From IMG/VR virus record IMGVR_UViG_3300022920_000004, positions 1-64,000 of that record: a stretch of 64,000 bases of DNA; one strand, written 5' to 3'. Source of the stretch: a virus. How positions within the stretch are numbered: position 1 is the stretch's first letter; each line of letters begins with the position of its first letter. The notes under the pieces are model-generated. The model was not told the origin of the DNA. It searched no databases and saw only the letters and a program-made list of their open reading frames with translations. The position numbers and the translations under genes are program-made. Positions 10,517 through 31,812 of this stretch are shown here, piece by piece.

Positions 10517-12291
10517 TGGAAGATATTACAGAACAATTTAATTTGCCAAAATACACAAGAGGCAAAAGTTTCGCAGATGCTAGCTCAATGATAATGGATA
10601 AATTTAGAGAACGTAAAGATCCTGAATCTAAACGTACTATGACAGAAATGTTAGATAGATTACGTCAAGCACAAGAGTTTGTTAAAGAACAAAACAAAAC
10701 TCCAGAGGAAAGACAACAAGAGCAAATGCAGATGGAACAACAGGCTCAAATGCAAGCTGAACAATCTCAACAACAAGTTGATCCTCAAATGCAACAACAA
10801 GCACCTCAAGAACAACCTCAACAAACACAATTTGCTGAAGGTGGTTTAATGGAATTTATGAAAGGTAATGCTGGTGGAATAGCTAGTGCCGGAGCTGGTG
10901 TTATGAATATGGTTGGAGATTTATCTGGTGAAGGAGTTTCTACAAATGCTGCAACTGCTGGATTAACTGGAGCTGCTAAAGGAGCTATGGCTGGAGCTGA
11001 GTTAGGACCTTGGGGAATGGCTGGAGGAGCTGTATTAGGAGGCATTACAAGTTTAATAGGTTCTGGTAAAGCTAAACGTGAGTTGCTAGAAAAAGAGCGT
11101 AATGAAACTCAAGGGGCTAGAAATCAATCTTTAAATACTTTTGCTGAAGGAGGTCAATTAAACCCTGATCCAACTTACCCACAAAACCCAAGCGATTTAA
11201 TTAAATCTTTTAAAACTAATCAAGAAGGTTTAGATTATAAAAATCCTTATCCTAATAGATCAAATAGGTTTCATAAGTTTGATGATTATCAGAAACGTTT
11301 AAAAAATAGATCTTTTGGGATATCACCAGTTACACCTAATTACGGGAGTAAATTACCTTTTGGAGATGGAACTGGAGGAGCTTCCCCTATTAAAGATGAA
11401 ATAAAATTAAAAAAAGCTTTATTAACAAGACCTGTTGTAACTAATACTAAAGAAGATTATAATGAGCAAATTAACAATGCTGTTAATAATTCATTTGCTA
11501 AAGGTGGTAAAATAACTGATACTAACCAATATGCTTTAGGTGATTGGTTAAAAACAGCGGGTAAAAATGTAGGAACTGCTGCTACTAAAACAGGTCAATT
11601 TTTAAATGAAAATAAAGGTGATATATTAAGATATGCACCAACAGCAGTTAATGCTTTTCAATTAGCTACATTACCAAAAGCTGAAACTGAAAGTTTAAAT
11701 AGACTTGATAATAGATTTAAACCTAATTATGTTGATGAAGCTGCTTTACAAAATATTAGTAGAGAAAACTATAATATGTCTAATCAAGCATTAGCTGGAG
11801 CTTCTGGTGGATCTACATCAGCATTACGTTCTAATATATTAGGTGCTGGTTTAAATAGAAATAAAGCATTATCTAGTGCTTATTTAAAAGCTGATGATAT
11901 TAATAGAGGTCAAGATAATACAGCGCAACAATTTAATGCTGGAATTGATAAAGTTAATTTACAACAATCTAATTCTGAGAAAGATATTAATGCTAGAAAT
12001 AGAGCTGCTAGAGATAATGAAAAATCTAAATTATTATCTGGAATTGGTACTGATATAGGGAGTATTGGTAAAGAAGAAAAGTATAAAGATATTATTGAAA
12101 AAATATCTGGTTATGATAAAGATGGTAAATTAGTTGCTGCTAAAAAAGCTAAGAGAGAAGCTGCTGAAAAGGATAGGGCAATTAAAAAGAATACAAAGAA
12201 AGTTATGAAATCTGTTAAAAAATCTCCTATTAAGGCTATTCAACGTAATGATTTTAATTTGTATAATAATTTAGAAACTTATAACGTATAA
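10516..12291 (+). CDS. Virion cargo/ejection protein (membrane-inserting candidate)
   Basis: Q-rich linker, Gly/Ala-rich hydrophobic hairpin (GAMAGAELGPWGMAGGAVLGG), FAxGG repeats and no Cys. Confidence 0.6.
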   Translation: MEDITEQFNLPKYTRGKSFADASSMIMDKFRERKDPESKRTMTEMLDRLRQAQEFVKEQNKTPEERQQEQMQMEQQAQMQAEQSQQQVDPQMQQQAPQEQPQQTQFAEGGLMEFMKGNAGGIASAGAGVMNMVGDLSGEGVSTNAATAGLTGAAKGAMAGAELGPWGMAGGAVLGGITSLIGSGKAKRELLEKERNETQGARNQSLNTFAEGGQLNPDPTYPQNPSDLIKSFKTNQEGLDYKNPYPNRSNRFHKFDDYQKRLKNRSFGISPVTPNYGSKLPFGDGTGGASPIKDEIKLKKALLTRPVVTNTKEDYNEQINNAVNNSFAKGGKITDTNQYALGDWLKTAGKNVGTAATKTGQFLNENKGDILRYAPTAVNAFQLATLPKAETESLNRLDNRFKPNYVDEAALQNISRENYNMSNQALAGASGGSTSALRSNILGAGLNRNKALSSAYLKADDINRGQDNTAQQFNAGIDKVNLQQSNSEKDINARNRAARDNEKSKLLSGIGTDIGSIGKEEKYKDIIEKISGYDKDGKLVAAKKAKREAAEKDRAIKKNTKKVMKSVKKSPIKAIQRNDFNLYNNLETYNV

Positions 12292-12293
12292 AC

Positions 12294-14459
12294 ATGGGAG
12301 TAAATAGATATTCTAACTTATCACAAGCTAAGTTTAATCCACTTAGCTTTCAAGAGTTATCAGCATTACCATTTCATCAAAGAAAGCAACATGATGCTAT
12401 GTCAGCACAAGCTGAAGAAGCTGGTATTATAGAATCACAAAGAATGGCTGCTGATGAAGAAGCTGTATCTGGAGCTATTAATGATTTTCAAGCTAAAACT
12501 GATGATTATATTAATAGATTAGATTCAGAAGGTTTCAACAATACTTCTAAATCAGAAATTAGAGAATTAGCTAGGGAACGTAAAGAATTAATGTCTACTG
12601 GTATTGTTGGTAGAAAACAAGCTCAATATGATAGATATGCTGCTAATATGAAGCAACTAGATAAGCGAAGAGATAAGGGTGATATTGATGTACTTAAACA
12701 TAGATTATTACAACAAAAAGCAGTTGAAGATTATAATACAGCTATTAAGAATGATCCTAACTCTACTTATCAAGACGTAATGGCTGTTAATGATTATGAT
12801 TATCAAAAAGAAGCTACTAAAATAGCTAAAGATGTAACATCTGCTATGCATACTAATAACTTTACTAAGTTTGGTTTTGAAGCTATTAAAGGAGCTCCTG
12901 GTCAATATATGCATGCTAAAACTCAAACTAAATATAAAAAAGCTGATGCTATTTCAAAAGCAATACAAGATATATTAGGTGCTAATAAAGATGTACAAAT
13001 GGATTTAGCACAACGTCAGCAACTTGGAATGTTTGGAGAAAAAGGTACTGGTGCTGATTACTTGAAAAGTGTTGCTGATAAAATTGGAAATGCTTATGAA
13101 GTTAATCAAACGACCATAACTAAAACAGGGTTTACACATAAAGCTCAGTTTGAAGAATACAAACGTAATTTAGATGATCAAACTAAACTTCAATTTGTAA
13201 GAGCTAGTCAAGGTGTTAGTACAACATTAAATTCTGGTAATTTACAAGATATTGAAAATTTAAATCAATCTGCTATAGTTGAGTTGAGTGGTTTGAAGAA
13301 AAAAATAGATACTTTTTCTGGTGATGTTAATAGTAGGGAGTATCATCTTTTAAAAACACAATATAATGAAAAATTTGCAACTCAAGCTAATTTAAAAAGT
13401 AGACTATCAGGAATTAAACAAGTTGCATTAAGTAATTTTAATACTGATGAAAAAACTTTATATAATGCTCACAATACAGTTTATGCAGGTGTTGATACTT
13501 CTTCTGAATATGACACGAGATATTCATTACAAGATAAAGTTGAAAATTTAGAAGATTATCAATCATTAATAAACAAATCCCCTATTCTAAAAAGAATAAT
13601 GTCTACTGGTGGTATGACATATTCTGATGAAAAACTTATAGATGTATTTAGTTCAACTATATTAGAAAGTAATAATAATAGATTACGTAAACAATTTGAT
13701 AATGGAGATATTAGTCAGAAAGAATTTGATGAAAGTTACACAAAACTTAATTTAAATAAAGATGGTTATGATCCCAATATTGAAACTAAATTAAATGCTA
13801 CATTTGCTAGAGGTAATAAAGCTATTGATACACATTTAAAAAATAGTCCTTACGCTGAATCATATGTTAGTTTTGCAGGACCTTCAACTGGAAAATATGC
13901 AACTTCTATAGGTGCTATCAATTCTAATTTAACTAACTCATTTACAGGAGCTGGTTATTCAACTGCGTATGATAATCAAGATCTTAATTTAAAATTACAA
14001 GAAATTGAAAAAGAAGCTGGTAAAAAAGTTAACAAATCAATTGAAGTAACTGATGGGTTTACTCCAGAAGGATATCCTATAGAACATTTAGTTTTAAGTG
14101 TAGATGGAAAATTAATTGATAGAATGCCTGTTACTAGAGGTAGTTTAGTTAGATCTGAATTTATGCAAGTTGGAAGAGAGCTTATGAAATCTTCTGATCC
14201 TGATAAATATTCAAGAGGAAAACAAATGGTTGCTAATTTACAACTACTTCCTTATGTTAACAAAGCTGGATTATTAACTTCTGCTAAAGAAGGAATTATA
14301 CCTATAAATTTAAAAGATGCTAAAACCAAAGAATCTATGGAAGTTTCATGGAAAAAAGAAGGTGATGGTTGGACTATTAAAATTGGAGATAGACCTGAAT
14401 CTATTAAATTATATAGTAAAAATGAAATTGTAAATTACTTATTTAATAAAAGTAAATAA
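12294..14459 (+). CDS. Virion cargo protein
   Basis: 721 aa, helical, N-terminal NRY..FNPLSFQEL, no Cys, position in the cargo operon. Confidence 0.55.
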   Translation: MGVNRYSNLSQAKFNPLSFQELSALPFHQRKQHDAMSAQAEEAGIIESQRMAADEEAVSGAINDFQAKTDDYINRLDSEGFNNTSKSEIRELARERKELMSTGIVGRKQAQYDRYAANMKQLDKRRDKGDIDVLKHRLLQQKAVEDYNTAIKNDPNSTYQDVMAVNDYDYQKEATKIAKDVTSAMHTNNFTKFGFEAIKGAPGQYMHAKTQTKYKKADAISKAIQDILGANKDVQMDLAQRQQLGMFGEKGTGADYLKSVADKIGNAYEVNQTTITKTGFTHKAQFEEYKRNLDDQTKLQFVRASQGVSTTLNSGNLQDIENLNQSAIVELSGLKKKIDTFSGDVNSREYHLLKTQYNEKFATQANLKSRLSGIKQVALSNFNTDEKTLYNAHNTVYAGVDTSSEYDTRYSLQDKVENLEDYQSLINKSPILKRIMSTGGMTYSDEKLIDVFSSTILESNNNRLRKQFDNGDISQKEFDESYTKLNLNKDGYDPNIETKLNATFARGNKAIDTHLKNSPYAESYVSFAGPSTGKYATSIGAINSNLTNSFTGAGYSTAYDNQDLNLKLQEIEKEAGKKVNKSIEVTDGFTPEGYPIEHLVLSVDGKLIDRMPVTRGSLVRSEFMQVGRELMKSSDPDKYSRGKQMVANLQLLPYVNKAGLLTSAKEGIIPINLKDAKTKESMEVSWKKEGDGWTIKIGDRPESIKLYSKNEIVNYLFNKSK

Positions 14460-17400
14460 TGGGAGATGAAGAATTTATTATAGAACATGACAATTCTATA
14501 TCAACTGATTATGATAAAGAATTTATTATTGATCATGGTCCAGATATAAAATATGATAATAGAATACAAGGATTAGATACCTCTAAATATACTAAATATT
14601 TAGGGGATAATATCTTTGTACCTACAAGTGGTATAGATGGTCTTAACAGTAGTAGAGCTTCTATGCAACCTATTACTCATAAATTAGGGAATGCTTTAGG
14701 AAGATTAACTAATATAATTCCTGAAGCAGTTGGGTCTGTAGCATCAGCATTAGATTTTGAAGATTATTTTAATCAAGATGATGAAGTTGGTAACTGGTTA
14801 ACTGATATAACTGAAGAGTGGAAACAATCTACTAATGAAGCTTTACCTATTTATAGGCAAAATCCTGGTAAATCATTAGATTTTGGAGATAGTGGATGGT
14901 GGATTGAAAATGGTTCAGCGTTAGTTAATTCTATAGGTGGTTTTGCTATAGGCGGTGGAGTTATTACTAAGGGTTTAACAGGACTTTCTAAGTTAACCAA
15001 AGCTAAGAAGTTAGCTGAATTAATGCTTACTACAAATAAAGCTGAAAGAGTTAATAGAGGTATTCAAACCGGTATAACTGCTACAATGTTAAATCAGTCA
15101 GAAGCTATTTTAGAATCTATGTCAGTTTATGATGATATATATAATGAAACTTTATTAAAATTAAACGAAGAAAATCCAGGTTCTGCTGATTTACCTGGAC
15201 AATTAGAAGAAAATAAAGCTGCTGCAAGACAAAAAGCTGCTGATGCTGCTAGTGCTACTGTAATGGCTAACAGAGCTAATATATTATTAAATATTACTTC
15301 TGCAAATATGTTTTTAAAAGCACCTAAATTAAGTAATAATTTACTTAAAAAAGAGACTTTTAGAACAAGTGCTAAAACTGGACTTATTGAAGGTGTACAA
15401 GAATCTGCTGAAGAATCTATAAACTTTTTAGCTGGTGAATATGGTAGAGCTGTTGGTAGAGATCAAGAATATGGTGTTAAAGAAATCTTAAATGATTTAG
15501 GTAAACCAGAAGCTATTGAAGCTGCTTTATTAGGTTTTATAGGTGGTATGGGACAAACTATTGTAACTAAAGAAGGTGTCAATAGAGTTCAAAAAACTGT
15601 AGATCCTATAACAGGTGAAAAAATGTCTGTTAAAGAATACAACAACCAAGCATATAATAAGCAGAAAGATATAATTGATGAAAATGAAGCTAATGCTAAA
15701 AAATCACAAGTTAAAAGTTTTACAAATTCTTTTAACAATGTAGCTGAAAATTTAAAGATATTAGACGCTGTTAAAAAAGCTAAAGCTGAAGGTAATACTG
15801 AAGAAGTTAAACGTTTAAAAGATTTACATTTAGACAATACAGCTTACTATAATTTTCAAAATGGTACAACTGAATCATTAATTAAATTATATGAAGAACT
15901 TCGTGATGGTGAACAGAAGGAAGATATGTCTAAAGATTATAAAGAACTTGCTAATAAAGCAATTACTAAAATTAAAACTTTAGAAAACTTTTATAATGAA
16001 TCAGGTAAATATAATAATCATCAACAAGTTTATATTAATAGATCTAATAGATATAATTTAGAAAACTATATTGATGAAGTTGGTGTTGAAGTTAGTAAAG
16101 TTAGTAATAATTTAAATGGATTTATAAGTAAGATAAGTGAATTATCTACTGGTGTTAAAAGTGATACTAATATAGGTGGTTATTTTTTAGATATAAATAA
16201 CATTGAGTTTAATCCAGCAAAAGAAGCTGGTGATACTAAAGCTGCTAATGAACTTGAAGAATTAAAAACTGTTATTAAAAATAGTGGTGATTATAAATCT
16301 TTATTAGAATTAAAAGAAGCTAAAGTTAAATTAGCAAAAGAATTAAAAGATAATATAATTGAAAATAGTCTTATAACATCTAAGGAATATCAACAAGCTT
16401 TTAAAGAACGTGTAGATAGTGTTAGACAAACTGCTGAAGAAAATATTGATAAGCAAGTTAAAAATGTTGAAAAAGAAATTAAGAACGATGAAGTTATTAA
16501 AAATGAAGCTGATAGACAAGCTGAAATAGCTGCTAAAAATGCTGAAACTGAACAAGCTATTGCTGATAAAAAAGCTGAAGTAGCTCAAACTACTGAAAAC
16601 TTAAATAATTTAGCTGATAACTTTAATGTAGGTGAAACTACTGATTTAGAGAATATGTTTGGTGAAAAGTATAAAGGTGTTTCAGGTGAAATATTATCAG
16701 TTGAAGAAAATGCTGATGGTACTAGAACTATAGAAGCTATGCTTGATGACGGTACTACTATTTCTACAAATGATAAAGTAGAACCAAACTTTAAAAATGA
16801 TAACATAGAAGACGTTTATAACACTGATGGAAGTGTTGAAGAGAATACTTCTAATGAGGAATCTGTTAAAAAAGCGGATGAAATAGCTGATACTAAAGAA
16901 GCTGAAAAAGATGGTAAGAAATTATCTGATGTTAAGCTTATGAGTACTTATAGAGATAGTGGTAAGACTTTAAAAGGTATACCACAAGCTTATATTGATT
17001 ATGAAAGAGAACCCATTAATAAAGTAGGTACAAAAGTTTATTTTGAGATTAATAAATCTATAGGGGATGGTTTAAAGAAAGGAAATAACTTTACAAAAGC
17101 AACTGAATTATATAATGATTTTATAAGTGGTAAAGAGTTATCTGCTGAAGATAAAAACTTTATGGTAGATTATTTACCATTTAAAGCTAAAATAAACAAC
17201 TCTGAGACAGTTTATACATTTTTAGAAAGTAAACCTAATTCAACTAATCCAAAGTCTTTAGAATCCTATAATAATAGAACTAGACCTCTTAGAATTAGTT
17301 TAATTAATCATTTAAAAAATGGTAGTGATATTAACTCACTTTATACAACTGTTAAAGGACAATATGGTGGAAGTATACAATTAGATACTAAAGGTTCTGA

Positions 17401-18640
17401 AAATAGCATATTAGATTTAGATGGTATTGATAGTTTAGAAGATATTGAATTATATGTAATAGATCAATATGGACAGCTTAAAGATATTAGTGGTATTCAT
17501 GCTAAAGATTGGACTAAAACTAAAAAGAATTGGAAAGGTTCTATTTATATGAAAACTAAATTATCTAATGGTAATCCATTTTATTTAAACTTAAACTTTG
17601 GTAAAGTATCTACAAAACAAGCTGAAATTATATTTGAAGTATATAGAAGTTTATTACAAAAAGGCAATAGACCAACTTCATTGATTAGTAATTTAGCACC
17701 TAATATACAATCATTAATTAAAAATAATTTAAAGAAAGAAATTGATTTAATTACAAAGACTGAAAATAAACCTTTTAATGAAATTATTATATCTGAATTA
17801 TTAGATTTAATATTTTGGGATGGTTCTAAAACAACAATGTCTGGTGATAAAAATGTTAAAAGTAGACTTCGTATTAATTATGAAACTAAAAGTGTTGAAT
17901 TTGGTGATAAATCTTATAAATTAAATGAACTTGGTGATGATAAAAAAGCTGAGTTTGTTGATTGGGTTTCTAAAAATAAAAATAGAAACTTTAAATTTAA
18001 ACCAAAACCTAGTGATATTAATCAAGCTTTAAATAGTACAGGTATAGACTACTTAGAATATGCTATTGCTGAGAAAGTTATTAATACAAATGCTAAAGTT
18101 AATCAACCATTATTTGAAGGTTTTACTAATTTATATTTGACTAATAGTATTGGTGGAGAAACTGCTGTACCAAAACCTAAAGCTGTTAACAAAGGTTTTA
18201 ATAAATCTACAGATACTAATTTAAAATTTGCTGAAGTAGATGGTAAAAGATATTATGCTAGTGCTGATAGTGGTAGAGTATTTGTAAGTAAAGATTTAGA
18301 TAAAGTAGATGGTAGAACTCCTTATGTACATGAACAAGTTGGTGCTTTAATTACAGATGTTAATTTAATTAATAAAATTGAAGCTAATATTCGTGGTAAT
18401 ATGTTTGCTGGAGCACCTGATATTAAATTAAATAAAAACTTTTCAAATAAATCTGAAAATAATGATGAAAATATTAGGATATCTCAAAATTTTATTGTAC
18501 CTTTGCAGGAGAATCCTTTATCTGATGAAGCTAAAACTATTGAAGATAAGCCTCTAAAGAAAAAAAGAGTTAAATTATCTAAAAAAGAAGCACAAGCTAG
18601 AGCATTAGCAGCAGCTAATAAATTAAACAAAAAATGTTAA
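14459..18640 (+). CDS. Large virion ejection protein (first of RNAP-associated trio)
   Basis: 1393 aa with EGVQESAEESIN...AALLGFIGG segment and coiled coils; its only Cys is the last residue. Confidence 0.65.
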   Translation: MGDEEFIIEHDNSISTDYDKEFIIDHGPDIKYDNRIQGLDTSKYTKYLGDNIFVPTSGIDGLNSSRASMQPITHKLGNALGRLTNIIPEAVGSVASALDFEDYFNQDDEVGNWLTDITEEWKQSTNEALPIYRQNPGKSLDFGDSGWWIENGSALVNSIGGFAIGGGVITKGLTGLSKLTKAKKLAELMLTTNKAERVNRGIQTGITATMLNQSEAILESMSVYDDIYNETLLKLNEENPGSADLPGQLEENKAAARQKAADAASATVMANRANILLNITSANMFLKAPKLSNNLLKKETFRTSAKTGLIEGVQESAEESINFLAGEYGRAVGRDQEYGVKEILNDLGKPEAIEAALLGFIGGMGQTIVTKEGVNRVQKTVDPITGEKMSVKEYNNQAYNKQKDIIDENEANAKKSQVKSFTNSFNNVAENLKILDAVKKAKAEGNTEEVKRLKDLHLDNTAYYNFQNGTTESLIKLYEELRDGEQKEDMSKDYKELANKAITKIKTLENFYNESGKYNNHQQVYINRSNRYNLENYIDEVGVEVSKVSNNLNGFISKISELSTGVKSDTNIGGYFLDINNIEFNPAKEAGDTKAANELEELKTVIKNSGDYKSLLELKEAKVKLAKELKDNIIENSLITSKEYQQAFKERVDSVRQTAEENIDKQVKNVEKEIKNDEVIKNEADRQAEIAAKNAETEQAIADKKAEVAQTTENLNNLADNFNVGETTDLENMFGEKYKGVSGEILSVEENADGTRTIEAMLDDGTTISTNDKVEPNFKNDNIEDVYNTDGSVEENTSNEESVKKADEIADTKEAEKDGKKLSDVKLMSTYRDSGKTLKGIPQAYIDYEREPINKVGTKVYFEINKSIGDGLKKGNNFTKATELYNDFISGKELSAEDKNFMVDYLPFKAKINNSETVYTFLESKPNSTNPKSLESYNNRTRPLRISLINHLKNGSDINSLYTTVKGQYGGSIQLDTKGSENSILDLDGIDSLEDIELYVIDQYGQLKDISGIHAKDWTKTKKNWKGSIYMKTKLSNGNPFYLNLNFGKVSTKQAEIIFEVYRSLLQKGNRPTSLISNLAPNIQSLIKNNLKKEIDLITKTENKPFNEIIISELLDLIFWDGSKTTMSGDKNVKSRLRINYETKSVEFGDKSYKLNELGDDKKAEFVDWVSKNKNRNFKFKPKPSDINQALNSTGIDYLEYAIAEKVINTNAKVNQPLFEGFTNLYLTNSIGGETAVPKPKAVNKGFNKSTDTNLKFAEVDGKRYYASADSGRVFVSKDLDKVDGRTPYVHEQVGALITDVNLINKIEANIRGNMFAGAPDIKLNKNFSNKSENNDENIRISQNFIVPLQENPLSDEAKTIEDKPLKKKRVKLSKKEAQARALAAANKLNKKC
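18468..18505 (+). promoter_or_regulatory. Intragenic Bacteroidota-type promoter upstream of the RNAP gene
   Basis: AAAATATTAGGA-N18-TACCTTTG, identical in elements and spacing to 2673-2710. Confidence 0.6.
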
Positions 18641-18643
18641 ACA

Positions 18644-21600
18644 ATGAGTTGTTTTATAGAAGTAAAAATTAATGGAAAACCAGTTGTATCTCAATTACAA
18701 CCTAAAATCCTAGAAATCCTTAAAAATAATCCTCATATTGTGTTAGAACAGTATGGGGATTTAAAGTATGTGGATGAATTAACAGATGAACAATTTGAAG
18801 AAGTTGCTGGTAAAAACTTTAATTACTTTGAAGACCCTTCTTTTTTAGGTGATTTTGGTGATTGGAAAAATAGTGACTCTAATATTAGACCTGAAAATGT
18901 TTATGACAATGGAGAACCTAAACTACATCAAGATAAAAATAATAAGAAATATTTTTATAGAAACAAGTATAATGATAAAGTTTACTTTCCATTAGAACAA
19001 AATGGTTTAAATTACATATATTCTAGTGAAGAGATACAAGATGGTACTCAATTACTAGCATATAAGCTGTTTACACGTAACTTTAATAATGACTGGAATG
19101 ATTTATCATTTATGAATGATAAAGCTACTAAAGAGGTTATTAAAGAGTATATGGAAGCTAGGATTGATACTTTAAGAAATATTGATTATGAATACGAAGC
19201 TGATGCTGTAGAAGATTCTTTAATTTATATTGATGAATGGGTTGATAATGTTAATGAATACTTTGAAAAGTTAGGATTTAAAATTGAAGAAACTGATTCT
19301 GAAATTCAAGATGAAACTGCTGATAATTCTAGAGGTTGGAGTAAAACATCACATGAAATGTCACCTAGTAGTAGTGTTGGTAGAAATATTTGGGCATTTT
19401 TATCTTTTTTACCAACTAGTAAATCTGCAGATCTTGTATTTAATGAATATGGTTTTGAAGATGTAAATGATATTTATAGTACATTAATATCTGAATTAAA
19501 AGATTTAAGTCCTACTATTATAGGTGGTCAAGTTGAAGATGTTTTTCAAACTATGCTTGATAAAATAGGTGAATTAGCTCATAAGAAACCTTATTTTAAA
19601 GAACTTTTAAATATATTAAATAATCCAAGTTTATCAGAAAATAGAAAGTCTGAATTTACACAAGCATTTAATTTAGTTAAAAACCCATACTTTGTTTCTG
19701 AAGTTGATTTTAGTGGTAAAAATAATATTAAACATACAGTTAAAGATGTAAGTCAAGTTAATGCTAACTTTAATTCTATTAAACGTGAATGGGGTTTCAA
19801 CTTTGAAACTATGTTTATAGATAAAGGTGTTTTAGATACTGTTAAACTTACTGAAATTAGAGACAGGACTAAAATGATTAGATCTGAAGTTGATCAGCTT
19901 AGAAAGACTATAAAGACTCCTGCAGATCTTGTACCAGCTATTAATAAAATACTTACAGTATTACATGATTTTGGTGCAGTAACTACAGAAGAAGGTTTTA
20001 AGTCTTATATAGGACAACTTGAAGATGTAATTATTCCAAATGAAGAATTATTAAATAATGTAAATGATGTATTATCTATTGTAGAGAAATTTGGTGATAA
20101 TTTACTTACTAAAGATCCTAAAAATAAAATTAAAGTATTTGATTATGATAAGTTTATTAATCCATTTAATACACAATCTTTATTTAGTGATTTAGCTAAA
20201 GAAGAAGCTTTTTATAAAGCTGATGGTTCTGATGCAAGTATTTATAGTGCTAAAAAATCATATTGGGTTTATAGCTTACCTTCTTATTTAGGTGGTGAAA
20301 TTAATAAATGGAAATCTAATATAGATGAACTTGAAAATTTATATAGAGAACCTGGTAATGAATCATCTAAAGTATTACAATATTTACTTGGTTATGAAGT
20401 AAATAGACTTGATAAAGTTAGAATACCAATTGCTGAAGCTAGAATTAAAGCTATTAACTTTGGTATATTTAATGTATTTCAAGAAAAGAAAACTGATGAC
20501 AATAGTTCTGACCCTAAGAATAATGGTGAATTATCTAAGACAGATGCTAATGTTGATAGTATGAATAGAGTTTTAGCGTATGTTAAAGGACAACAAAGTT
20601 TATTTAATACACCAACTCCTGCAGATAAATCAACTGCATATTTATTATCACATGGTTATTTTTTAAATACAAACATTAATCAAATTATAGATAAAAAAGC
20701 TGTCTTACCTTCTAAAGTAATACAAGTATTTTATGATTATTTTAGTAGTGAATATACTAGAATGATTAAAGCTGTTGAAACTATTAATGATCCTAATGCT
20801 AAAAAATATGTGCATTATCATCATAATAAATTTGGTGAAACTCATAAAAATGGTAAACTTATAGGTAATGCATTTAAATCTCAAATATTTGAAGGTTTAA
20901 GTTTTGAAAATATTAAAGATGTTTTACCTGAAATTGCTGATAAAATTTATCAAGATGATGGTAGACCAGCTTTAAAAACTATTGATTCATACGAAACTCA
21001 AATTAAAGATTATATACATAATATTTTAAAAGAAGGTATTGCTGATAAAGTTAGTTTTTTAACTAATGAAGGTATTATAACACCTAATAAAAATACTAAA
21101 GGTGGTTATGATTCAAATGGTATTGATGGTGCTATAATGAAAGCTTATGAAGCTTATGATTATCCAGTAATGAATGCTGTTAGTGATTATTATATTAATG
21201 GCTTAATTAGTAATGTTGAGTATTCTAAAATGTTTTCTGGAGATCCTGCATATTATAAAAACATGGTTGATTATGCTAAACGTATTCCATCTACTTATAC
21301 TGATGGTTTACAACTTAGATTAATGAACAATGATGAATTAACTTTTAACGCTGCAATTGTTACAGGTGTTGAAATTGCTGGTAGAAATCTTGCTGATATT
21401 AAAGAAATTGCTGGTGAAAAAATTGCTAATATGTATTCTAAAGGTAAAGTTAATACTACAGATGCACAAGCTTGGATTACACCTGCAAGATGGGAATTCT
21501 TAGTTAAAAGACTTGGTTTATGGAATAAATATCATGAATCAGCTTATCCTAAGATGTTAGGAACTGATAACACACCTTTTACTGATAAAGAAATTAAAGC

Positions 21601-24600
21601 TGTTGCACAACCTTTAAAAGGTGTTTATTTTAAAAGAAATAATGGTGTACCAACATTTTTAAAGTATTCTCAAGCTGTATTATTACCTGGTTTAATTAAA
21701 GGTACTGATTTACAGAGATTATATGATAAAATGGTTGAGAATGGTATTGATGAAACTATTACTTTTGATGGTATTAAAGTAGGTGCTACAACAACAGATA
21801 CTATTCATAATGAAGATGGTACATTATTAGAAGATTTTAATCTTACACCTTTAGAAATGGATAACAGAGGTTGGAAGTTACAACAAAATTTACCAACTAA
21901 AGGTATTAAAGATACTGATACAGGTTCTCAAATACAAAAGAATGTATTAGCTGGTATTGCTCATAATATGGAGAAACTATTTACTAAAAATGGTTCTGAT
22001 ATTACAGGTAAGGATTTATATAAAGATATTAATAATATTGTAGGTGCTTTATCACAAAAAGGTGTAGATGAGTTATCTAGAGAACTTGGTATAGATGAAG
22101 CAGGTAAAATAAATAATAAAGAAGGTCTTTATAAATTATTACTTGATGAAGCTAAGAAACGTAACATTAATGAAAACTTAATTAAATCTTTAGAGAAGGA
22201 ATTAACTATTTATGGTATTCCACAGGCTCAAAGTAAATTAATGAATATGTTTATGTCTATCGTTAAAGATAGAATTGTTAAAATTAAGACTAATGGAGGT
22301 TCTTTTATTCAAGTATCTAACTTTGGTATTGATAAATTAAATTATAAAGATACTCCAGGTGTTAAATGGTTTGTAGATCCTGTTAATGGTTTAAAACCAC
22401 CTCATATTGTTGATGTAGAAATTGATTTTAAAAATAAAGAAACTGGTGAAATTGAAAAACGTACTGTTAAAAAGATTAAACCTGGTCAAGTATTATTACC
22501 TGGTTCACTTTTAACTAAGTATATACCTAATTGGAAAGATATTCCTGCTGATAAATTAAAAGAAATGATATCTCCAGAGATATTAGAAAATATTATTGGT
22601 TATCGTATTCCAAATCAAGGTTTATCTTCAAATGATGCTTTAGAGATTGTAGGATTTTTACCTGAAGGTATGGGAGATGCTGTAGTTGCATATTCTGAAA
22701 TACCTACTAAAACTGGGTCAGATTTTGATATAGATAAAATGTTTATGATGATTCCATCATTCTCACAAGAGGATAATGGAAACTTAGTTTACGCTAAACC
22801 TATATTAGACGAAGAAGGTAATGAATTACCTCTATCAGAACAACCTAAAGAAGTATTGCAAAATAAATTAATAGAGTCTTATAAAGCTGTATTCTTACAT
22901 CCTGACGTTGTTAAAGATGTAATGACACCAATTGATTTTGATTATATTAAAAGAGATATTAATACTATATTTGAACAATCTGGTAAACAAAAAGACTTAC
23001 ATCATTTTGATGTTACTAGTCAAATTAATATAAAATATGATTTCTTAGCTGGTAAAGCTGGTGTTGGTCAAACGGCTAATATGTTAGTAGACCACGTAAG
23101 AGGAATGTTTACTAAAAATTCTTTAAGAGATACTTATATAGGTTGGGGACATAAAAATAATGTTAATGAAACATTATTTGATAAAGAATATTCTGTAGAA
23201 TTAAATGCTGAAGATTCTAAATATATATCTGAAACTGTTGGAATACCAATTGAAGAAGCTATTAAATATAAAATTAGTAATTCTATATCTGCAATTTTAA
23301 ATGCATTTGTTGATATTGCTAAAGATCCTTATATTACTAGAGGAAATTGGACTACACAGACTTCTAACGTTGGACTTATGATGTTAAGAGCTGGAATGCA
23401 CCCAATGTATGTTAATAGATTTATAGGACAACCTGTTATTAAAGAATATATTGATTTTGTAGTAAATGCTGAATCTAAATTTAATAATGAGCAGGGTAAT
23501 ATTAGAGAATTATTTTTAAAACATTATCTTAGAGAAAATGATGAGCCAGAACCTATGTATGATGAAAATCTTCAAGTACTATCATTAAAAGATTTAGATA
23601 AAGAGATTAAAAATTATACTTTTGAAAATCAATATCCAATTATACAAAAATTCTTTGAATTACAAGATCATTCTAAAAAAGTAGTACAAGGTATTAATGC
23701 TGCTAAACCTGATACACAATCATCAGGTAAAGATTTATCAAGTAGACTAATTGCTCAAAATATAATTGAAGAAATTGAAAATGCTGATTATAAAAAAGAA
23801 GTGGGGGCATTAACTAACTTTAGTGATAAATTAGTAGACCCAACAACTGGTGAAGAAACTATTTTAGGACATTATGTTAATAATTCTGTGTATTGGTTAG
23901 ATAGTGTAGTTAAAGCAAATCCTAATTTGTTTCAAATGGCTAATAAGAATGTTGAAAATACATTTAATGTTATCTCACAACAAATTAGAGGAACTAAATT
24001 ATTAAATCAAGATATTGCAGATTCATTATATAGTTCATATTATGCATACTCATTATCTGGTTTTGAAGCCCTTCAACTTAAAAATCCTGCTGTAGAATTA
24101 TTTGTTGAATTACCAAAACAATTAGCTGAATATAAACTTGAAGATGATACTAATTATTTATTAAACCAATTGGAAATTATATCTGATGGTGGTATGAGTT
24201 ATATTAAACTTCAAAATAAGAAGCGTTCTGAAGGTATACAAAATAAATTGTATAGAGGTTGGAAAGATTTATTTGAAGATAATAGAGATTTAGCAACTAA
24301 ATTAGTAAAGTATGCTTATTATCAATCTGGTTTTAAGAATAATATTAATGAATTTTTTAGTCATATTCCACATGAGTATTTAGTAGAAAATAGATTGAAT
24401 TATTACATTTATGATTTAGATGCTTCTACTAATAATATTCAAACTAAGTTTATAGACCAAATGTTTAGACATCAAGCTAATAATACATTACTTGTACCAA
24501 ACTTACCTAAGAAATTAGTTAGTGAATTAAAGGAAGGTATTTCATATAGATTTGAAAACACAGATTATGTTGAACTTAAACCTTTTGCAAAAGTTGGTGA

Positions 24601-25024
24601 TAATCTAGTAAAATTAGAAGGATATAATACAGATGGTAGTGGTATTTATGTTAAAACATTTAAATTAGGTATTGATAAAAACTTTATTGAATATAAATAT
24701 GATAAAGATGTTAAAATGTCTCAAATACCAAGTAATACTCCTGCTAATATGGAAGATATTAATAGTTATTTAAAGACTTTAAAAGTATCTAAAAAACCAG
24801 GTGAATTAAATACTAAGACTAAGAAAGTTAATACTGTACCAGCTCTTACAGAAGCTGAGAAGGAGTTTAATGATATTAATAAATCAGAAGCTTCAACTCA
24901 ATATCAAGAATTAGTAGATGAGGTTATTGAAACTGCTGGTAAAACAAATCAATTAGATTTGTTTTCTCAGGATATAAATGATAAGTTAGATGAATTTGAT
25001 AATGGTTGTAAAAATAATAAATAA
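18644..25024 (+). CDS. Virion-packaged single-chain two-barrel DNA-dependent RNA polymerase (phi14:2 gp66-like)
   Basis: 2126 aa; catalytic loop TKTGSDFDIDK (DFDID at 22721-22735), GYRIPNQG, TDAQAW, KYS and VDIAKDP motifs. Confidence 0.92.
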   Translation: MSCFIEVKINGKPVVSQLQPKILEILKNNPHIVLEQYGDLKYVDELTDEQFEEVAGKNFNYFEDPSFLGDFGDWKNSDSNIRPENVYDNGEPKLHQDKNNKKYFYRNKYNDKVYFPLEQNGLNYIYSSEEIQDGTQLLAYKLFTRNFNNDWNDLSFMNDKATKEVIKEYMEARIDTLRNIDYEYEADAVEDSLIYIDEWVDNVNEYFEKLGFKIEETDSEIQDETADNSRGWSKTSHEMSPSSSVGRNIWAFLSFLPTSKSADLVFNEYGFEDVNDIYSTLISELKDLSPTIIGGQVEDVFQTMLDKIGELAHKKPYFKELLNILNNPSLSENRKSEFTQAFNLVKNPYFVSEVDFSGKNNIKHTVKDVSQVNANFNSIKREWGFNFETMFIDKGVLDTVKLTEIRDRTKMIRSEVDQLRKTIKTPADLVPAINKILTVLHDFGAVTTEEGFKSYIGQLEDVIIPNEELLNNVNDVLSIVEKFGDNLLTKDPKNKIKVFDYDKFINPFNTQSLFSDLAKEEAFYKADGSDASIYSAKKSYWVYSLPSYLGGEINKWKSNIDELENLYREPGNESSKVLQYLLGYEVNRLDKVRIPIAEARIKAINFGIFNVFQEKKTDDNSSDPKNNGELSKTDANVDSMNRVLAYVKGQQSLFNTPTPADKSTAYLLSHGYFLNTNINQIIDKKAVLPSKVIQVFYDYFSSEYTRMIKAVETINDPNAKKYVHYHHNKFGETHKNGKLIGNAFKSQIFEGLSFENIKDVLPEIADKIYQDDGRPALKTIDSYETQIKDYIHNILKEGIADKVSFLTNEGIITPNKNTKGGYDSNGIDGAIMKAYEAYDYPVMNAVSDYYINGLISNVEYSKMFSGDPAYYKNMVDYAKRIPSTYTDGLQLRLMNNDELTFNAAIVTGVEIAGRNLADIKEIAGEKIANMYSKGKVNTTDAQAWITPARWEFLVKRLGLWNKYHESAYPKMLGTDNTPFTDKEIKAVAQPLKGVYFKRNNGVPTFLKYSQAVLLPGLIKGTDLQRLYDKMVENGIDETITFDGIKVGATTTDTIHNEDGTLLEDFNLTPLEMDNRGWKLQQNLPTKGIKDTDTGSQIQKNVLAGIAHNMEKLFTKNGSDITGKDLYKDINNIVGALSQKGVDELSRELGIDEAGKINNKEGLYKLLLDEAKKRNINENLIKSLEKELTIYGIPQAQSKLMNMFMSIVKDRIVKIKTNGGSFIQVSNFGIDKLNYKDTPGVKWFVDPVNGLKPPHIVDVEIDFKNKETGEIEKRTVKKIKPGQVLLPGSLLTKYIPNWKDIPADKLKEMISPEILENIIGYRIPNQGLSSNDALEIVGFLPEGMGDAVVAYSEIPTKTGSDFDIDKMFMMIPSFSQEDNGNLVYAKPILDEEGNELPLSEQPKEVLQNKLIESYKAVFLHPDVVKDVMTPIDFDYIKRDINTIFEQSGKQKDLHHFDVTSQINIKYDFLAGKAGVGQTANMLVDHVRGMFTKNSLRDTYIGWGHKNNVNETLFDKEYSVELNAEDSKYISETVGIPIEEAIKYKISNSISAILNAFVDIAKDPYITRGNWTTQTSNVGLMMLRAGMHPMYVNRFIGQPVIKEYIDFVVNAESKFNNEQGNIRELFLKHYLRENDEPEPMYDENLQVLSLKDLDKEIKNYTFENQYPIIQKFFELQDHSKKVVQGINAAKPDTQSSGKDLSSRLIAQNIIEEIENADYKKEVGALTNFSDKLVDPTTGEETILGHYVNNSVYWLDSVVKANPNLFQMANKNVENTFNVISQQIRGTKLLNQDIADSLYSSYYAYSLSGFEALQLKNPAVELFVELPKQLAEYKLEDDTNYLLNQLEIISDGGMSYIKLQNKKRSEGIQNKLYRGWKDLFEDNRDLATKLVKYAYYQSGFKNNINEFFSHIPHEYLVENRLNYYIYDLDASTNNIQTKFIDQMFRHQANNTLLVPNLPKKLVSELKEGISYRFENTDYVELKPFAKVGDNLVKLEGYNTDGSGIYVKTFKLGIDKNFIEYKYDKDVKMSQIPSNTPANMEDINSYLKTLKVSKKPGELNTKTKKVNTVPALTEAEKEFNDINKSEASTQYQELVDEVIETAGKTNQLDLFSQDINDKLDEFDNGCKNNK

Positions 25025-28000
25025 TGGCTTGTAAAATATTTAGAAATAAAGAAAATGAAATAGTTAATGTAGAGGCTCCTAATAAAAAGGAGTCTCTATT
25101 ATACAAAGCTATATTAGAATCATCTGAAATTAATGGTGATAAAGAATTAGCAATTAGACAATGGGTTACTGCTTATTTAGATGATTTTAAGAAGAAATTT
25201 GGAGATTGGGAAAATAACCCTGATGAATTTGTAGGTGATTTAGATGTTAATGGTGAACCAACTATAGAATTTTTTAATAAAGAATATGGTAAATTATTTG
25301 AAACTATTGAAACGGGTGATAAGAATATCTTAGAAGTTGATGAAAAATGGGTTGAAAGTAAGAAAAATATAATCTTAAAATCTATAACTGAAACTGTTGA
25401 TGATAATTATGATTCTAAAATAGATTTAACTACTGTTGAAGGTAAAATTACAAAAGTTTATAATAAACTACAAGATACTATTACTCATCAATTTAGACTT
25501 ATTAAAAGATTAGACGGTAGTGGTAAAGATTTTCAAAAAAATAAACAACAACGAATTGAAGAATTTGAAAAATTAACTAAAACTATTGAAAATTATAGAG
25601 ATGTTAATAAACTTAAAGGTGTTTTAACTTATTTAGAACATGCTCAAAAAAGTATTACAACACTTGAAAATAGCTTACGTAAGAAAGATAAATCAGTTGA
25701 TGATATAGAGCAAGTAATAAAAAATTATGAATCTTACAAAGCCATATTTAATATTATAGATGATATATCTGAATTATATCACGATTCTATACGTGCTGGA
25801 CATATCTCTGCTAAACCTGATATTTTAAAGCAAATCAACTATATTAAAAGTAAACATAATAACATTAATGGTGATATTAGTGGTTTAGTTAAAGATTATT
25901 TAAGACATACTTTAAATGATATTAAAAACTTTCCTAAAGTTGAAAGTAAATGGAAAGATACTTTAGAGAAAGAATATAATGAAACTGTTAGTAAAGTCTA
26001 TGGTAGTAAAGGTAAAACTCATAAAGAAAATTGGATTAATGAAAAATTACAAGAATTTAAACCTCAAATACAAAAGGATATAAATAAGGCTACAGATGCA
26101 TTAATTGATAACACTGCTTATGATATATCAGGATTTGCAAAAAACTTGATGAGTGGCTTTGAAATTAACTCTGACATAGTACAAATGTTTACTTCAATGG
26201 CTTTAGAAGTACGAGATAATATTATTGCTGACGTTACTGTTGTAGATGGTGAATTAGATGCATTATTTAAAGAATATAATAAAACTAATGGTGGTTATAA
26301 TCCTCGTAAACAATTTAAAGATATTATAGAAGTTGATTCTAAAGGTAATCATTTCTTTAAAGGTAAATATAAAACTGAATTTATGGAGAAGCATTATGAG
26401 CTTCAAAATAAATATAGTGAGATGTCAGCTATTAAAGAAAAATTAAAAGATAATCGTACAGATAAAACTCTTATAGCTGAATTAAAGGGTCTAAAAAAAA
26501 TTACTAAAGCTCTTAAAGATGATTTGTATATTTCAAGTCATTATAAAATATCTAAAGTTCATCCTAAATGGTTAAATGATTTTAGTAAAGTAAGTGAATC
26601 TAATATGAAAGTATTGAATGAAGCTTATAATAGATTAGAAACTGCTAATCTTAATACTAATGGATTTAGTTCTTTAATAATGGATGTTGGTTTTGTACCA
26701 GACACTTTATTTTATAAATTACCATCTATTACAGCTAGTAATTTTGAATTAGTACAATCTGGTAATACTAAAGGGTTGTTTGTAGATAAGATTAAAGATT
26801 TAACCACTATAAAAGCTGATGATATTGGGTATGCTACAGTTAAAACTAATTCTTCTGGTGAAATATTAAAAGATTTACCAATACATTTTAGAAATAAAAT
26901 TGATTCTAAAACTCAATCTTGGGATATTTTTACAATGTTAAAAATGGAATCTCATAATGGTATTGCATATAAACATCGTGCTAAGAAAGAGATTTATATG
27001 AATATGGTTATTGATATGGTTAGTAATAAAGATTTCTATGTTACTAAAGGAACTAGTGTTACTAAACAATTTTCTAAATATGCTAAACACAATAAAGAAG
27101 TTATTAAAAAAGGTGGTAGTAATATAGAAGATAAGTTACGTGATATAATGGATACTTTCATGTATGATATAACTAAGAAAGATGCTGGTAAACTTGGTCC
27201 TATTGATGTTCAGAAGCTAACAGGAATGATTAATGGTTATACTGGTATGATTGGTATGTCAATGAATTATCATTCAGCATTAGTCAATTTAGCAGGTGGT
27301 TATGCACAATTTATAATAAGTGCTGTAGCTAAAGACGTTATTAGTGTTAAAGATTTAAGAAAAGCATTTGCTGTGTATCATAAAAATACTGTAGATAATG
27401 CTAAAGATTTAAATTCTGCTGGTGAAGATTCATTTGTTAGTAAAATTAATGTAATGTTTGATACCTTTGGTGGACAACAAATTGGTACAGAATCATTTAT
27501 TAAAGATAAAGGTTGGAAGAAGTTTGCTAATATGCATGGATTAACATTTATGCATTCATTAGGAGAACATCAATTACAGTCTATTTTAACGATGGCTGTG
27601 CTTAATTCAACTAAAGCATTAGATAATAATGGAAGTGTCATTAAAGAAGCTAATAAAGAGCTTACTGTATTAGATGCTATTAAGTTAGAGGATGGTAAAT
27701 TAAAAATGAATCCTAAATTAGTTTATACAAGTCATTCACCTCTTACTAAATGGGAAGATGGTGGTAGAGTGCAAATGCAATCTAAGATTAAGTATAAAAT
27801 GATGGAAACTCTTGGTAGATATGATAATAATCATAAATCTGAGTTTGAAAAAACTTGGTTAGGTAGTTTATTATTTATGTATAAAAGATATTTCTTATCA
27901 ATGGGTGTTAGCAGGTTTAGAAATATTGGACACAGTATTAAAGATAAGGATAATATTGATGATGATTTAAAGTTTTATTCTAATGCTAATAAACGATTTG

Positions 28001-28524
28001 AAGAAGGTTATTATACTACAACAGCAAGATTTTTATTACAAAATGTTATAAAGAATGCTAAAATACTTAATTTAAAAAGTATAATTTCTGATTATAATAA
28101 ACTTACTGATTATGATAAAGGTAATATTAAAAAAGCTAGTATAGAAGCTGTATTAGCTCAAGTAATTGGTATAGTTTCTACTTTACTAGCTCAAGCTGCA
28201 GATGAAGATGATGATGAATTAGTATTCTTTTTAGCATATGAATTAAGACGTTTAGAATCTGAATTATGGCAATTTAGAGATCCAAATGAAGCAGTTATGA
28301 TTACTAAATCTCCATTTGCATCATTACGTACATTAGAATCATCTATAAGTTTATTAGGTAGAATAGCAAGTCCTTCAAAATGGGCTGAAGAATATGAAAC
28401 TGGTAGAAGAAAAGGAGAAATGAAAATTACTAAATTAGTTCAAGATTTAGTTCCTTTATGGAATAGAACTGATATTAGTAATGAAGAGAAATTTAATTAT
28501 TTGGATAATGTATTAACTAAATAA
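25024..28524 (+). CDS. Large virion ejection protein (third of RNAP-associated trio)
   Basis: 1166 aa; GEH..Q, G.Y...K...LGSLLFMYKRYF and EEGYY patterns; translationally coupled to RNAP (TAATG). Confidence 0.65.
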   Translation: MACKIFRNKENEIVNVEAPNKKESLLYKAILESSEINGDKELAIRQWVTAYLDDFKKKFGDWENNPDEFVGDLDVNGEPTIEFFNKEYGKLFETIETGDKNILEVDEKWVESKKNIILKSITETVDDNYDSKIDLTTVEGKITKVYNKLQDTITHQFRLIKRLDGSGKDFQKNKQQRIEEFEKLTKTIENYRDVNKLKGVLTYLEHAQKSITTLENSLRKKDKSVDDIEQVIKNYESYKAIFNIIDDISELYHDSIRAGHISAKPDILKQINYIKSKHNNINGDISGLVKDYLRHTLNDIKNFPKVESKWKDTLEKEYNETVSKVYGSKGKTHKENWINEKLQEFKPQIQKDINKATDALIDNTAYDISGFAKNLMSGFEINSDIVQMFTSMALEVRDNIIADVTVVDGELDALFKEYNKTNGGYNPRKQFKDIIEVDSKGNHFFKGKYKTEFMEKHYELQNKYSEMSAIKEKLKDNRTDKTLIAELKGLKKITKALKDDLYISSHYKISKVHPKWLNDFSKVSESNMKVLNEAYNRLETANLNTNGFSSLIMDVGFVPDTLFYKLPSITASNFELVQSGNTKGLFVDKIKDLTTIKADDIGYATVKTNSSGEILKDLPIHFRNKIDSKTQSWDIFTMLKMESHNGIAYKHRAKKEIYMNMVIDMVSNKDFYVTKGTSVTKQFSKYAKHNKEVIKKGGSNIEDKLRDIMDTFMYDITKKDAGKLGPIDVQKLTGMINGYTGMIGMSMNYHSALVNLAGGYAQFIISAVAKDVISVKDLRKAFAVYHKNTVDNAKDLNSAGEDSFVSKINVMFDTFGGQQIGTESFIKDKGWKKFANMHGLTFMHSLGEHQLQSILTMAVLNSTKALDNNGSVIKEANKELTVLDAIKLEDGKLKMNPKLVYTSHSPLTKWEDGGRVQMQSKIKYKMMETLGRYDNNHKSEFEKTWLGSLLFMYKRYFLSMGVSRFRNIGHSIKDKDNIDDDLKFYSNANKRFEEGYYTTTARFLLQNVIKNAKILNLKSIISDYNKLTDYDKGNIKKASIEAVLAQVIGIVSTLLAQAADEDDDELVFFLAYELRRLESELWQFRDPNEAVMITKSPFASLRTLESSISLLGRIASPSKWAEEYETGRRKGEMKITKLVQDLVPLWNRTDISNEEKFNYLDNVLTK

Positions 28525-28593: not shown

Positions 28594-29454
28594 TTAAAAA
28601 ATATATCTTATTTGATTCCAAGGTATTATACTATTATGTAATTTTTTAAAAGAATCAACATATTTATTTTTATTTTGCCATTTATATCTTAAATTTTCAG
28701 AACCATAAGAACTGACTTTAGATTCTTGTTTATCAGGTTGCCACAATAATTCTTCAGCTTCAGGATTATGGATTAAATTATATTCATGCATTTTTTTATT
28801 ATGTGTTAATAATATAACTTCTGATAATACATAAGGTTTAATTTCATCTAATACAATATCATTTACTAAATTAAATAATTCTTCATATAATTTTTTAGTA
28901 TGAGGTAAAATAATAACTGGGCTAAAATTTATATGTACATCATAACCAGCTTTATAAAAAGTATTAATAGCTTTAATTCTATCAATAATTAAGCTAGTAT
29001 TAGGTTCTAATATATTAGATAATTCTTGGGGCATTAAACTAAATCTAATTCTTATTTTACGTAAAGGATTAAAATTTAATAAATTATTATTAACATTTTT
29101 AGTTGCAAATGTTCCAAAAACATTATCATTATTTTTAAAAAAATTAAATATTTTTGTCCAATCATGATATTTAGCATGTAATGCAAAATCTTCATTACAA
29201 GATAAATCATAAGTCCAATATTTATTATGAGTTTGATTAGGTTTTTTAACACCTAATGTATTTACATGTTCATAAATACTATTAATTATATCATCTGTAT
29301 TTGTAGCAATTGTAAGACCTTTATTTACATGCCTTCTCATATAACAATAAGCACATTTATATAAACAACCGTAACCAAAAGATGGTGTTATATAATCACT
29401 ACTTCTTCCACTATATCTAATTTTTAATGATTTTCTTATTACACTTTTAATCAT
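28594..29454 (-). CDS. Spore photoproduct lyase-like radical SAM protein
   Basis: CxxxCxxC (GCLYKCAYCY), SCNED corresponding to the SplB H-donor Cys region, FATK, RIRFSLMP and NFSPVI. Confidence 0.85.
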   Translation of the reverse strand: MIKSVIRKSLKIRYSGRSSDYITPSFGYGCLYKCAYCYMRRHVNKGLTIATNTDDIINSIYEHVNTLGVKKPNQTHNKYWTYDLSCNEDFALHAKYHDWTKIFNFFKNNDNVFGTFATKNVNNNLLNFNPLRKIRIRFSLMPQELSNILEPNTSLIIDRIKAINTFYKAGYDVHINFSPVIILPHTKKLYEELFNLVNDIVLDEIKPYVLSEVILLTHNKKMHEYNLIHNPEAEELLWQPDKQESKVSSYGSENLRYKWQNKNKYVDSFKKLHNSIIPWNQIRYIF

Positions 29455-29469
29455 ATTATTATTTTAAAT

Positions 29470-29506
29470 AAAAAAAGTAGCTACAAATTAATGTAACTAC
29501 TTTTTT
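29470..29506 (-). terminator. Rho-independent terminator (bidirectional shape)
   Basis: AAAAAAAGTAGCTACA-AATTAA-TGTAACTACTTTTTT. Confidence 0.75.
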
Positions 29507-29516
29507 AATAATTTAA

Positions 29517-31710: not shown

Positions 31711-31713
31711 ACT

Positions 31714-31745: not shown

Positions 31746-31766
31746 TAAAATGATGGTTATTTTAAA

Positions 31767-31811: not shown

Positions 31812-31812
31812 A

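Follow-up and report, generated by a model that had tools for sequence, protein, structure and literature searches.

Cysteines at the facing ends of giant cargo proteins in a crassvirus virion RNA polymerase module, a candidate head-to-tail disulfide tether

Among the phages of the human gut, crassviruses are the most abundant. How several megadaltons of protein, including an RNA polymerase (RNAP), are loaded and delivered has been posed as a question in recent structural papers (PMC10172136, PMC13434306), and for crAss001 unfolding and threading through tail constrictions of under 50 Å have been proposed (PMC10172136). The ejection proteins of N4-like phages (Schitoviridae) are known to suppress cysteine (PMC11445570), and the polyproteins found in some crassviruses have been suggested to be cleaved (Drobysheva et al., gp66 preprint). 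A covalent link between separately encoded ejection proteins has been described for cyanopodophage A4 (Anabaena phage A-4L, PNAS 2025), where cryo-electron microscopy resolves a disulfide between Cys1715 of gp27, which ends a C-terminal helix, and Cys5 of gp26, within the capsid-internal pre-ejectosome; this is the only paper we found that links a pre-ejectosome with a disulfide (PMC12002296). Here we examine the first 64 kilobases (kb) (hereafter, the window) of IMG/VR record IMGVR_UViG_3300022920_000004, a 99-kb crassvirus judged to be 98% complete, in which three consecutive giant proteins, namely protein A, the virion RNAP and protein C, carry cysteines at their facing ends and nowhere else.

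The three genes are located on the plus strand. Protein A (14459-18640, 1393 residues) is an ortholog of phi14:2 gp67 and p-crAssphage gp45 (BLASTP to g067, E=4e-23; to gp45, E=3e-16) and, by position, of crAss001 gp47; no sequence match to it was found in Pfam, PHROG or PDB. The virion RNAP (18644-25024, 2126 residues) is a homolog of phi14:2 gp66 (PDB 6VR4; phmmer E=1.9e-277), with 32% identity over 95% of the length in a tblastn comparison. Its catalytic aspartate triad, D1360/D1362/D1364, is encoded at approximately 22721-22735, and the DxDxD columns are invariant in our RNAP alignment (A1). Protein C (25024-28524, 1166 residues), whose start shares one base with the RNAP stop (TAATG), is an ortholog of phi14:2 gp65 and crAss001 gp49 (BLASTP to g065, E=7e-102; to gp49, E=6e-24). 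A gp66 homolog with DxDxD, accompanied by flanking orthologs and preceded by ring, muzzle and cargo proteins, identifies the locus as a Crassvirales RNAP module. PHROGs and Pfam hold no family for protein A, the RNAP or protein C, and a megablast search of the region against a phage collection returned no match.

We translated all window open reading frames (ORFs), tallied their cysteines and checked the counts against the raw sequence. The trio of 4685 residues contains four cysteines in total. The sole cysteine of protein A is its last residue, Cys1393 (TGT 18635-18637, followed by TAA); the RNAP has only Cys3 (TGT 18650-18652) and Cys2122 of 2126 (TGT 25007-25009); and protein C has only Cys3 (TGT 25030-25032). 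The three upstream cargo ORFs (269+591+721 = 1581 residues) have none. These counts and coordinates, including the lack of cysteine in the upstream proteins, had been given by a first-pass annotation made from the sequence alone, and all of them proved exact. The other 50 window proteins average 1.29% cysteine, a rate at which about 60 cysteines are expected in the trio (Poisson P = 3.5e-21 for four or fewer), and four cysteines would occupy the four facing ends (5 residues each), one per end, with a chance probability of approximately 3e-11. When these 50 proteins are used as controls, a cysteine is found within the first 10 residues in 4 and within the last 10 in 5; the null chance of both cysteines occurring at one junction is about 0.8%. 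The cysteine pattern of the trio is thus confirmed and lies far beyond chance.

In order to determine whether the pattern is conserved, we collected relatives from two IMG/VR scans (80 of approximately 540 matches) and several GenBank records; these gave about 90 loci. After de-duplication, 82 loci fell into 61 clusters, and a junction was scored as paired when a cysteine was located no more than 10 residues from both facing ends. Among these clusters, cysteine is present on both facing ends at 31/33 split A|RNAP junctions and at 54/57 RNAP|C junctions, in total 85/90 junctions against the null of about 0.8%. The enrichment at facing termini across Crassvirales orthologs that the first-pass annotation had proposed to look for is therefore present. 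The N-terminal cysteine is mostly found at position 3-5 (range 2-7), and the C-terminal one mostly 0-3 residues from the end (range 0-8). Ends that do not face a neighbor within the chain carry cysteine in 1/31, 0/17 and 1/50 cases, and internal cysteines of the surveyed module proteins amount to 71 in 305,329 residues (0.023%). Gut lineages were read with TAG as Gln, and with that reading they fit the pattern; L040 and L076 were read under table 11. In a number of gut-derived loci (L066, L069-L075, L078-L084, L087, L088, L090 and L091) the RNAP module is open only when TAG encodes Gln and breaks into many short ORFs under table 11.

The pattern is maintained in cultured relatives. In phi14:2, despite the 32% RNAP identity, gp67 has Cys1797 (of 1797), gp66 has Cys3 and Cys2179 (of 2180) and gp65 has Cys3, with no further cysteine. 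In crAss001, gp47 has only Cys2339 (of 2341), gp50 has Cys5, Cys1334 and Cys2404 (of 2412), and gp49 has only Cys5. The terminal cysteines stand out even where little else is conserved: cysteine is the sole invariant column both in the last 260 residues of the RNAP and in the first 720 residues of protein C (44 sequences; mean identity 11% and 10%, respectively), Cys3 is one of two invariant columns among 31 full-length protein C homologs, and both Cys3 and Cys2122 of the RNAP reach a conservation of 90% or more in alignment A1. Adjacency of the genes is not needed for the pattern to be kept, as gaps or inserted genes place the partner genes 0.36-6 kb apart in L004, L015, L018, L020 and L033. 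The crAss001 gp47 gene is encoded on the strand opposite to gp50 and gp49 and still retains its terminal cysteine; a stop/start coupling sequence is therefore excluded as the source of the pattern, and a nucleotide motif for translational coupling was rejected on the basis of this strand arrangement.

Gene fusion and gene splitting provide another view of the same positions. In lineages in which protein A is fused to the RNAP, among them Flavobacterium phage FpV4 and numerous lineages from the gut, the pair is present in 0/15 clusters with a usable upstream neighbor: the N-terminus of the fused protein, the C-terminus of the preceding protein (0/15) and the former junction are all free of cysteine, and these lineages still carry the RNAP|C pair. 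Where the RNAP is instead fused to protein C (p-crAssphage gp44, L062), the A|RNAP pair is kept. In the tree of the RNAP core, split proteins have the N-terminal cysteine and fused ones do not in 54/54 rows; the tree contains 6 architecture changes, at least 4 of which are forced by well-supported branches, and the cysteine state followed each of them. Additional splits bring additional pairs. L062 encodes a 962-residue protein with Cys961, then a 1281-residue protein with Cys3 and Cys1281, then a 3728-residue protein with Cys4, and in L035 protein C is split into 1167 residues (Cys4, Cys1166) and 1308 residues (Cys4). The non-facing ends with cysteine in L062 and L035 are explained by the fact that those ends are themselves extra junctions. 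Loss of cysteine upon gene fusion, which the first-pass annotation had named as a check, is therefore observed. Fused lineages are also approximately 190-390 residues shorter around the former junction than split sister lineages, which would fit terminal arms that serve as tethers and become dispensable upon fusion. The rule of one cysteine pair per gene break and none per fusion helps annotation of these giant genes, which are hard to annotate, in that it points to genuine protein termini, genuine start codons and recoded stops. The RNAP motif scan also recovered a P23-45-like siphovirus ORF of 5002 residues (L089:3770-18778), a tape-measure-RNAP fusion that has no terminal cysteine and both of whose cysteines are internal (2130 and 2533); its length is exactly that reported for the Thermus phage P23-45 tape-measure/RNAP fusion.

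The comparative expectations of the first-pass annotation are thus borne out, additional gene splits included, and its interpretation is supported in part. The facing cysteines probably form reducible disulfides that tether protein A, the RNAP and protein C head to tail in the mature particle; we base this reading on sequence comparison, and it is in this sense that we infer the disulfide nature of the crassvirus bond. The C-terminus of protein A would pair with the N-terminus of the RNAP, and the C-terminus of the RNAP with the N-terminus of protein C. Each bond would most likely be an intermolecular disulfide that can be reduced and that forms once the proteins are packed in the capsid, with oxidation probably taking place after the particle exits the reducing cytoplasm. 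The three proteins would then become one linear chain of approximately 4700 residues, so that a bond made after translation would do what gene fusion does in many relatives. A position at the extreme ends may have been favored because a junction with minimal overhang could thread a narrow tail channel: cysteines at the very ends would leave almost no side branch, which fits the threading via tail constrictions proposed for crAss001. Such a chain may secure 1:1:1 loading and/or ordered ejection, or may serve core stability, and reductants of the host cytoplasm would part the proteins after entry, which may free or activate the polymerase.

Several structural observations bear on the junctions. 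Residues 1-137 of an AlphaFold2 model of protein C (predicted template modeling score, pTM, 0.74) have a predicted local distance difference test (pLDDT) score below 50, which is consistent with a flexible arm bearing Cys3. A complex prediction with the C-terminal 260 residues of the RNAP and the N-terminal 720 residues of protein C, both given as alignments, returned interface (ipSAE) scores of 0.00 and 0.02, which count neither for nor against a link. In the phi14:2 gp66 crystal a few terminal residues are unresolved (gp66 preprint), and purified crAss001 particles have been seen to contain disulfides in their tail and portal vertex (PMC10172136).

A number of observations weigh against a conserved disulfide tether. 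The cytoplasm in which the virions are put together is reducing, and the habitat of gut crassviruses is anoxic. The rule also has exceptions: the cysteine of protein A lies 32 residues from the end in L003 and 18 in L054, the RNAP of L050 is split without a cysteine pair, the cargo-protein-1 domain of the window itself is divided between two ORFs without cysteine, and some gut lineages have several internal cysteines. Independent split/fused pairs on the tree are all concordant, but the events are few (4/4 pairs, sign test p = 0.125). Terminal contexts are poorly conserved, save for Lys near the C-terminal cysteine and a frequent Cys-Pro-Asn at the opening of protein C. Neither the gp66 preprint nor the crAss001 atlas (PMC10172136) mentions cargo cysteines. 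Finally, comparison of the crAss proteins with A4 gp27 and gp26 gave a best BLASTP E=0.04 over 18 residues. With hhalign, a relationship between protein C and the gp26 family received a probability of 0.2%, and one between the RNAP tail and the gp27 family 0.07%, and phmmer of proteins A and C against the PDB found nothing. Foldseek searches against the PDB and VIA-align wide with the protein C model returned only generic alpha-solenoid, spectrin-like and helical-bundle matches, and no A4 chains. Because no homology to A4 was detected, evidence from that phage transfers by analogy only.

The N-terminal cysteine of protein C is followed by Pro at +1 in 19/52 and by Asn at +2 in 24/52 sequences (e.g., L021, L046, L057 and L070). 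The irregular loci deserve a separate description. The architecture of L055 is complex, and its 871-residue piece has Cys3 and Cys871. L050 (17451-19172) and L055 (13191-16676) contain related ORFs (with MSKNIEVEG and MNKHIEAEG starts) inserted in the RNAP module beside unusual RNAP splits, and each of these ORFs has two closely spaced internal cysteines. In L021 (7545-15581) and L043 (9902-17804) approximately 0.9 kb interrupts the RNAP gene inside the catalytic GSD|FDVD motif, with no new cysteine at the break; this interruption looks like an intron or another mobile insertion.

We considered four other explanations for the facing cysteines. The best surviving one accepts that the disulfide is real and regards it as a static staple of the capsid-internal core (pre-ejectosome), broken or irrelevant at ejection, so that there is no threaded chain. 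The A4 structure contains just such an arrangement, a helix in a cleft together with a disulfide within a symmetric pentameric core (PMC12002296), and the crAss001 atlas places the RNAP proteins in the capsid cargo zone (PMC10172136). However, a docked staple does not need cysteines so near the ends (offsets are mostly 1-4), nor flexible and poorly conserved arms. The equivalence with in-frame fusions does not discriminate, as it suits a thread and a staple equally. We consider a purely static role unlikely, while giving it real weight.

Another explanation is that each terminal cysteine acts alone, in homotypic dimers, in contact with some other virion component or as a site of modification, and that the neighboring proteins are not linked. 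Two lone terminal cysteines without an evident partner fit this view. The FpV4 upstream cargo protein (L013:2228-4024) has a lone Cys5 in 598 residues and the facing end of its neighbor has no cysteine, and p-crAssphage gp47 (L012:20-2377) has a lone Cys784 of 785 residues next to the cysteine-free gp46. Cysteines acting alone would leave unexplained the nearly cysteine-free outer ends in the survey, the joint loss of both cysteines upon fusion (0/15) and the appearance of two new cysteines with each new split, which makes this explanation quite improbable.

It is also conceivable that the facing cysteines bridge a metal ion (Zn, Cu or Fe), for which the first-pass annotation had allowed; the four cysteines of the window equal the ligand number of a tetrahedral site. 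The evolutionary unit, however, is a pair and not a quartet: a locus with one junction has exactly two cysteines and a locus with three junctions has six, so each junction supplies two cysteines where a metal site has three to four conserved ligands. Neither a conserved His or Asp nor a further cysteine lies close to the terminal one, as His is found within the 12 terminal residues of only 1/31, 4/36, 5/53 and 7/52 ends, and the same arrangement in A4 is a disulfide (PMC12002296). A metal bridge thus appears very improbable. Because the cysteine count scales with two per junction, we discarded the idea of one Zn(Cys)4 knot that holds the three proteins together. We also rejected a split intein or trans-splicing: the cysteines sit too near the chain ends (offset of 0-8 residues at the C-terminus, position 2-7 at the N-terminus) for intein halves to fit, and no Hint/intein Pfam match was found in the window proteins searched.

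The remaining explanation, a by-product of general cysteine depletion plus chance or a nucleotide signal at coupled stops and starts, draws on the cysteine-poor nature of ejected proteins (PMC11445570) and on the abutting or overlapping genes of the window trio, but it is refuted by the survey (85/90 junctions), by the placement probability in the window and by persistence of the pattern in crAss001 with protein A on the opposite strand and across inserted genes, and we give it practically no credence.

The disulfide tether can be extended to a bolder model, which we put forward tentatively and with more doubt than confidence. In this model the cargo would be a redox-zippered polyprotein, an end-to-end disulfide train of 4,700-7,000 residues that is pulled unbranched through the tail in gene order and unzipped by the host cytoplasm, leaving the polymerase free for transcription. 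As the same sole-cysteine signature is present in unrelated cyanopodophages, zippered delivery would then be a general, convergently evolved solution in short-tailed phages. A conserved covalent tether, if true, predicts 1:1:1 stoichiometry, the exit order and release of the polymerase by a redox switch.

The surroundings of the trio are those of a crassvirus. The window has a G+C content of 26.6%, and its plus strand from 2.7 to 28.5 kb is a crassvirus virion module of typical layout, with ring proteins 2 and 1 (Pfam CrAss_Ring_1 and CrAss_Ring_2). The gene of the muzzle protein (5665-9627, plus strand; 1320 residues, 6 cysteines; Pfam crAss_MUZ, E=1e-191; PHROG 28748) opens the cargo block, as in crAss001. 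It is followed on the same strand by two cysteine-free ORFs of 269 and 591 residues (9707-10516 and 10516-12291), homologs of phi14:2 g070 and g069. These ORFs share one crAss_CARG1 domain (Pfam PF25725), of which profile positions 13-71 end the first ORF and positions 76-130 start the second; they overlap by one base (TAATG at 10514-10518) in an A-rich junction, and phi14:2 also has a two-gene arrangement of cargo protein 1 (g070/g069). The next gene (12294-14459, plus strand) encodes a cysteine-free cargo protein of 721 residues that is homologous to phi14:2 gp68 (BLASTP to g068, E=2e-37) and is the positional counterpart of crAss001 cargo protein 2; judging from its lack of cysteine, this protein would stand outside the cysteine-linked chain.

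The domain composition of protein C differs from that of most of its relatives. Most protein C homologs (alignment A3) have an N-terminal HExxH (zincin) motif, and protein C of the window has none; its alignment with phi14:2 gp65 begins only at residue 364 of the latter, so that the protease domain is seemingly missing. Directly past the cargo block, the minus strand at 28594-32667 encodes a spore-photoproduct-lyase-like radical S-adenosylmethionine protein with CxxxCxxC at residues 30-37, a nicotinate/nicotinamide phosphoribosyltransferase, an endonuclease VII and a phosphoribosyltransferase, which suggests functions in nicotinamide adenine dinucleotide (NAD) salvage and DNA repair. Among the 26 window proteins scanned for a thiol oxidoreductase, none resembles thioredoxin, DsbA or Erv, and the only redox-like CxxC motif in the window is CGYC in an ORF at 57182-57634 that has no Pfam match.

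Comparison with known systems places this locus as follows. Within Crassvirales there is no difference in kind: phi14:2 gp67-gp66-gp65 and crAss001 gp47-gp50-gp49 are orthologous, follow the same order in the virion block and have the same terminal-cysteine pattern. The fused forms (p-crAssphage gp44, the 4287-residue protein of FpV4 and those of many uncultured lineages) contain the same domains in the same order within one chain, but there a peptide bond takes the place of the junction, both junction cysteines are absent and approximately 190-390 residues of arms are missing. Our literature search found no description of cargo cysteines or disulfides in crassviruses, and a 2026 paper on N4 is also silent on them (PMC13434306). 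The N4-like virion RNAP (gp50/gp71) and its partners resemble the window in that a giant virion RNAP passes via a short tail and cysteine is strongly suppressed (PMC11445570), and the premise of the first-pass annotation regarding N4-type ejection proteins is in this respect documented. In N4-like phages, though, cysteine is absent even at the ends, the domains reside in one polypeptide and the polymerase fold is unrelated (PMC13434306). The six cargo proteins of the window (6266 residues) likewise have no internal cysteine, and they depart from the N4-like rule of no cysteine anywhere by their four conserved terminal ones.

The closest parallel is A4. As in crassviruses, giant and otherwise cysteine-free capsid-internal ejection proteins encoded by adjacent genes have cysteines at facing termini: in the A-4L genome Cys1715 and Cys5 are the only cysteines of the 1717-residue gp27 and the 1114-residue gp26. 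In the relatives Pf-WMP3, Pf-WMP4, TR020 and CHP58 (approximately 25% identity) the sole cysteine of the gp27-like protein is 2-3 residues from the end, and in the gp26-like protein a cysteine is found at position 5 or 8. A sole cysteine at the extreme C-terminus of the upstream protein, facing one at position ~3-8 of the downstream protein, is therefore found in the window, in A-4L and in these four relatives. The gp26-like protein of TR020 (L096:6468) starts with MTLNCPT, which resembles the Cys-Pro start of protein C, and convergence or a very remote relationship is possible. In A4, the one family in which it has been examined, the signature is a real disulfide; by analogy it may be one in crassviruses, possibly through convergence, and the fact that it turns up again in an unrelated phage family whose disulfide has been solved suggests that ejection proteins follow a more general principle. 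The statement of the first-pass annotation that no such system had been described was too strong, given that the A4 gp27-gp26 head-to-tail disulfide is published (PMC12002296). The two systems also differ. A4 has one link and no RNA polymerase, whereas a chain of two to three links is proposed for crassviruses, and in the A4 paper the link is presented as a structural staple of a pentameric core, with neither an evolutionary rule nor covariation with fusion and splitting being reported (PMC12002296). A single-link precedent is thus known in A4, and the proposed multi-link RNAP chain, with its covariation with gene fusion and splitting, would extend it.

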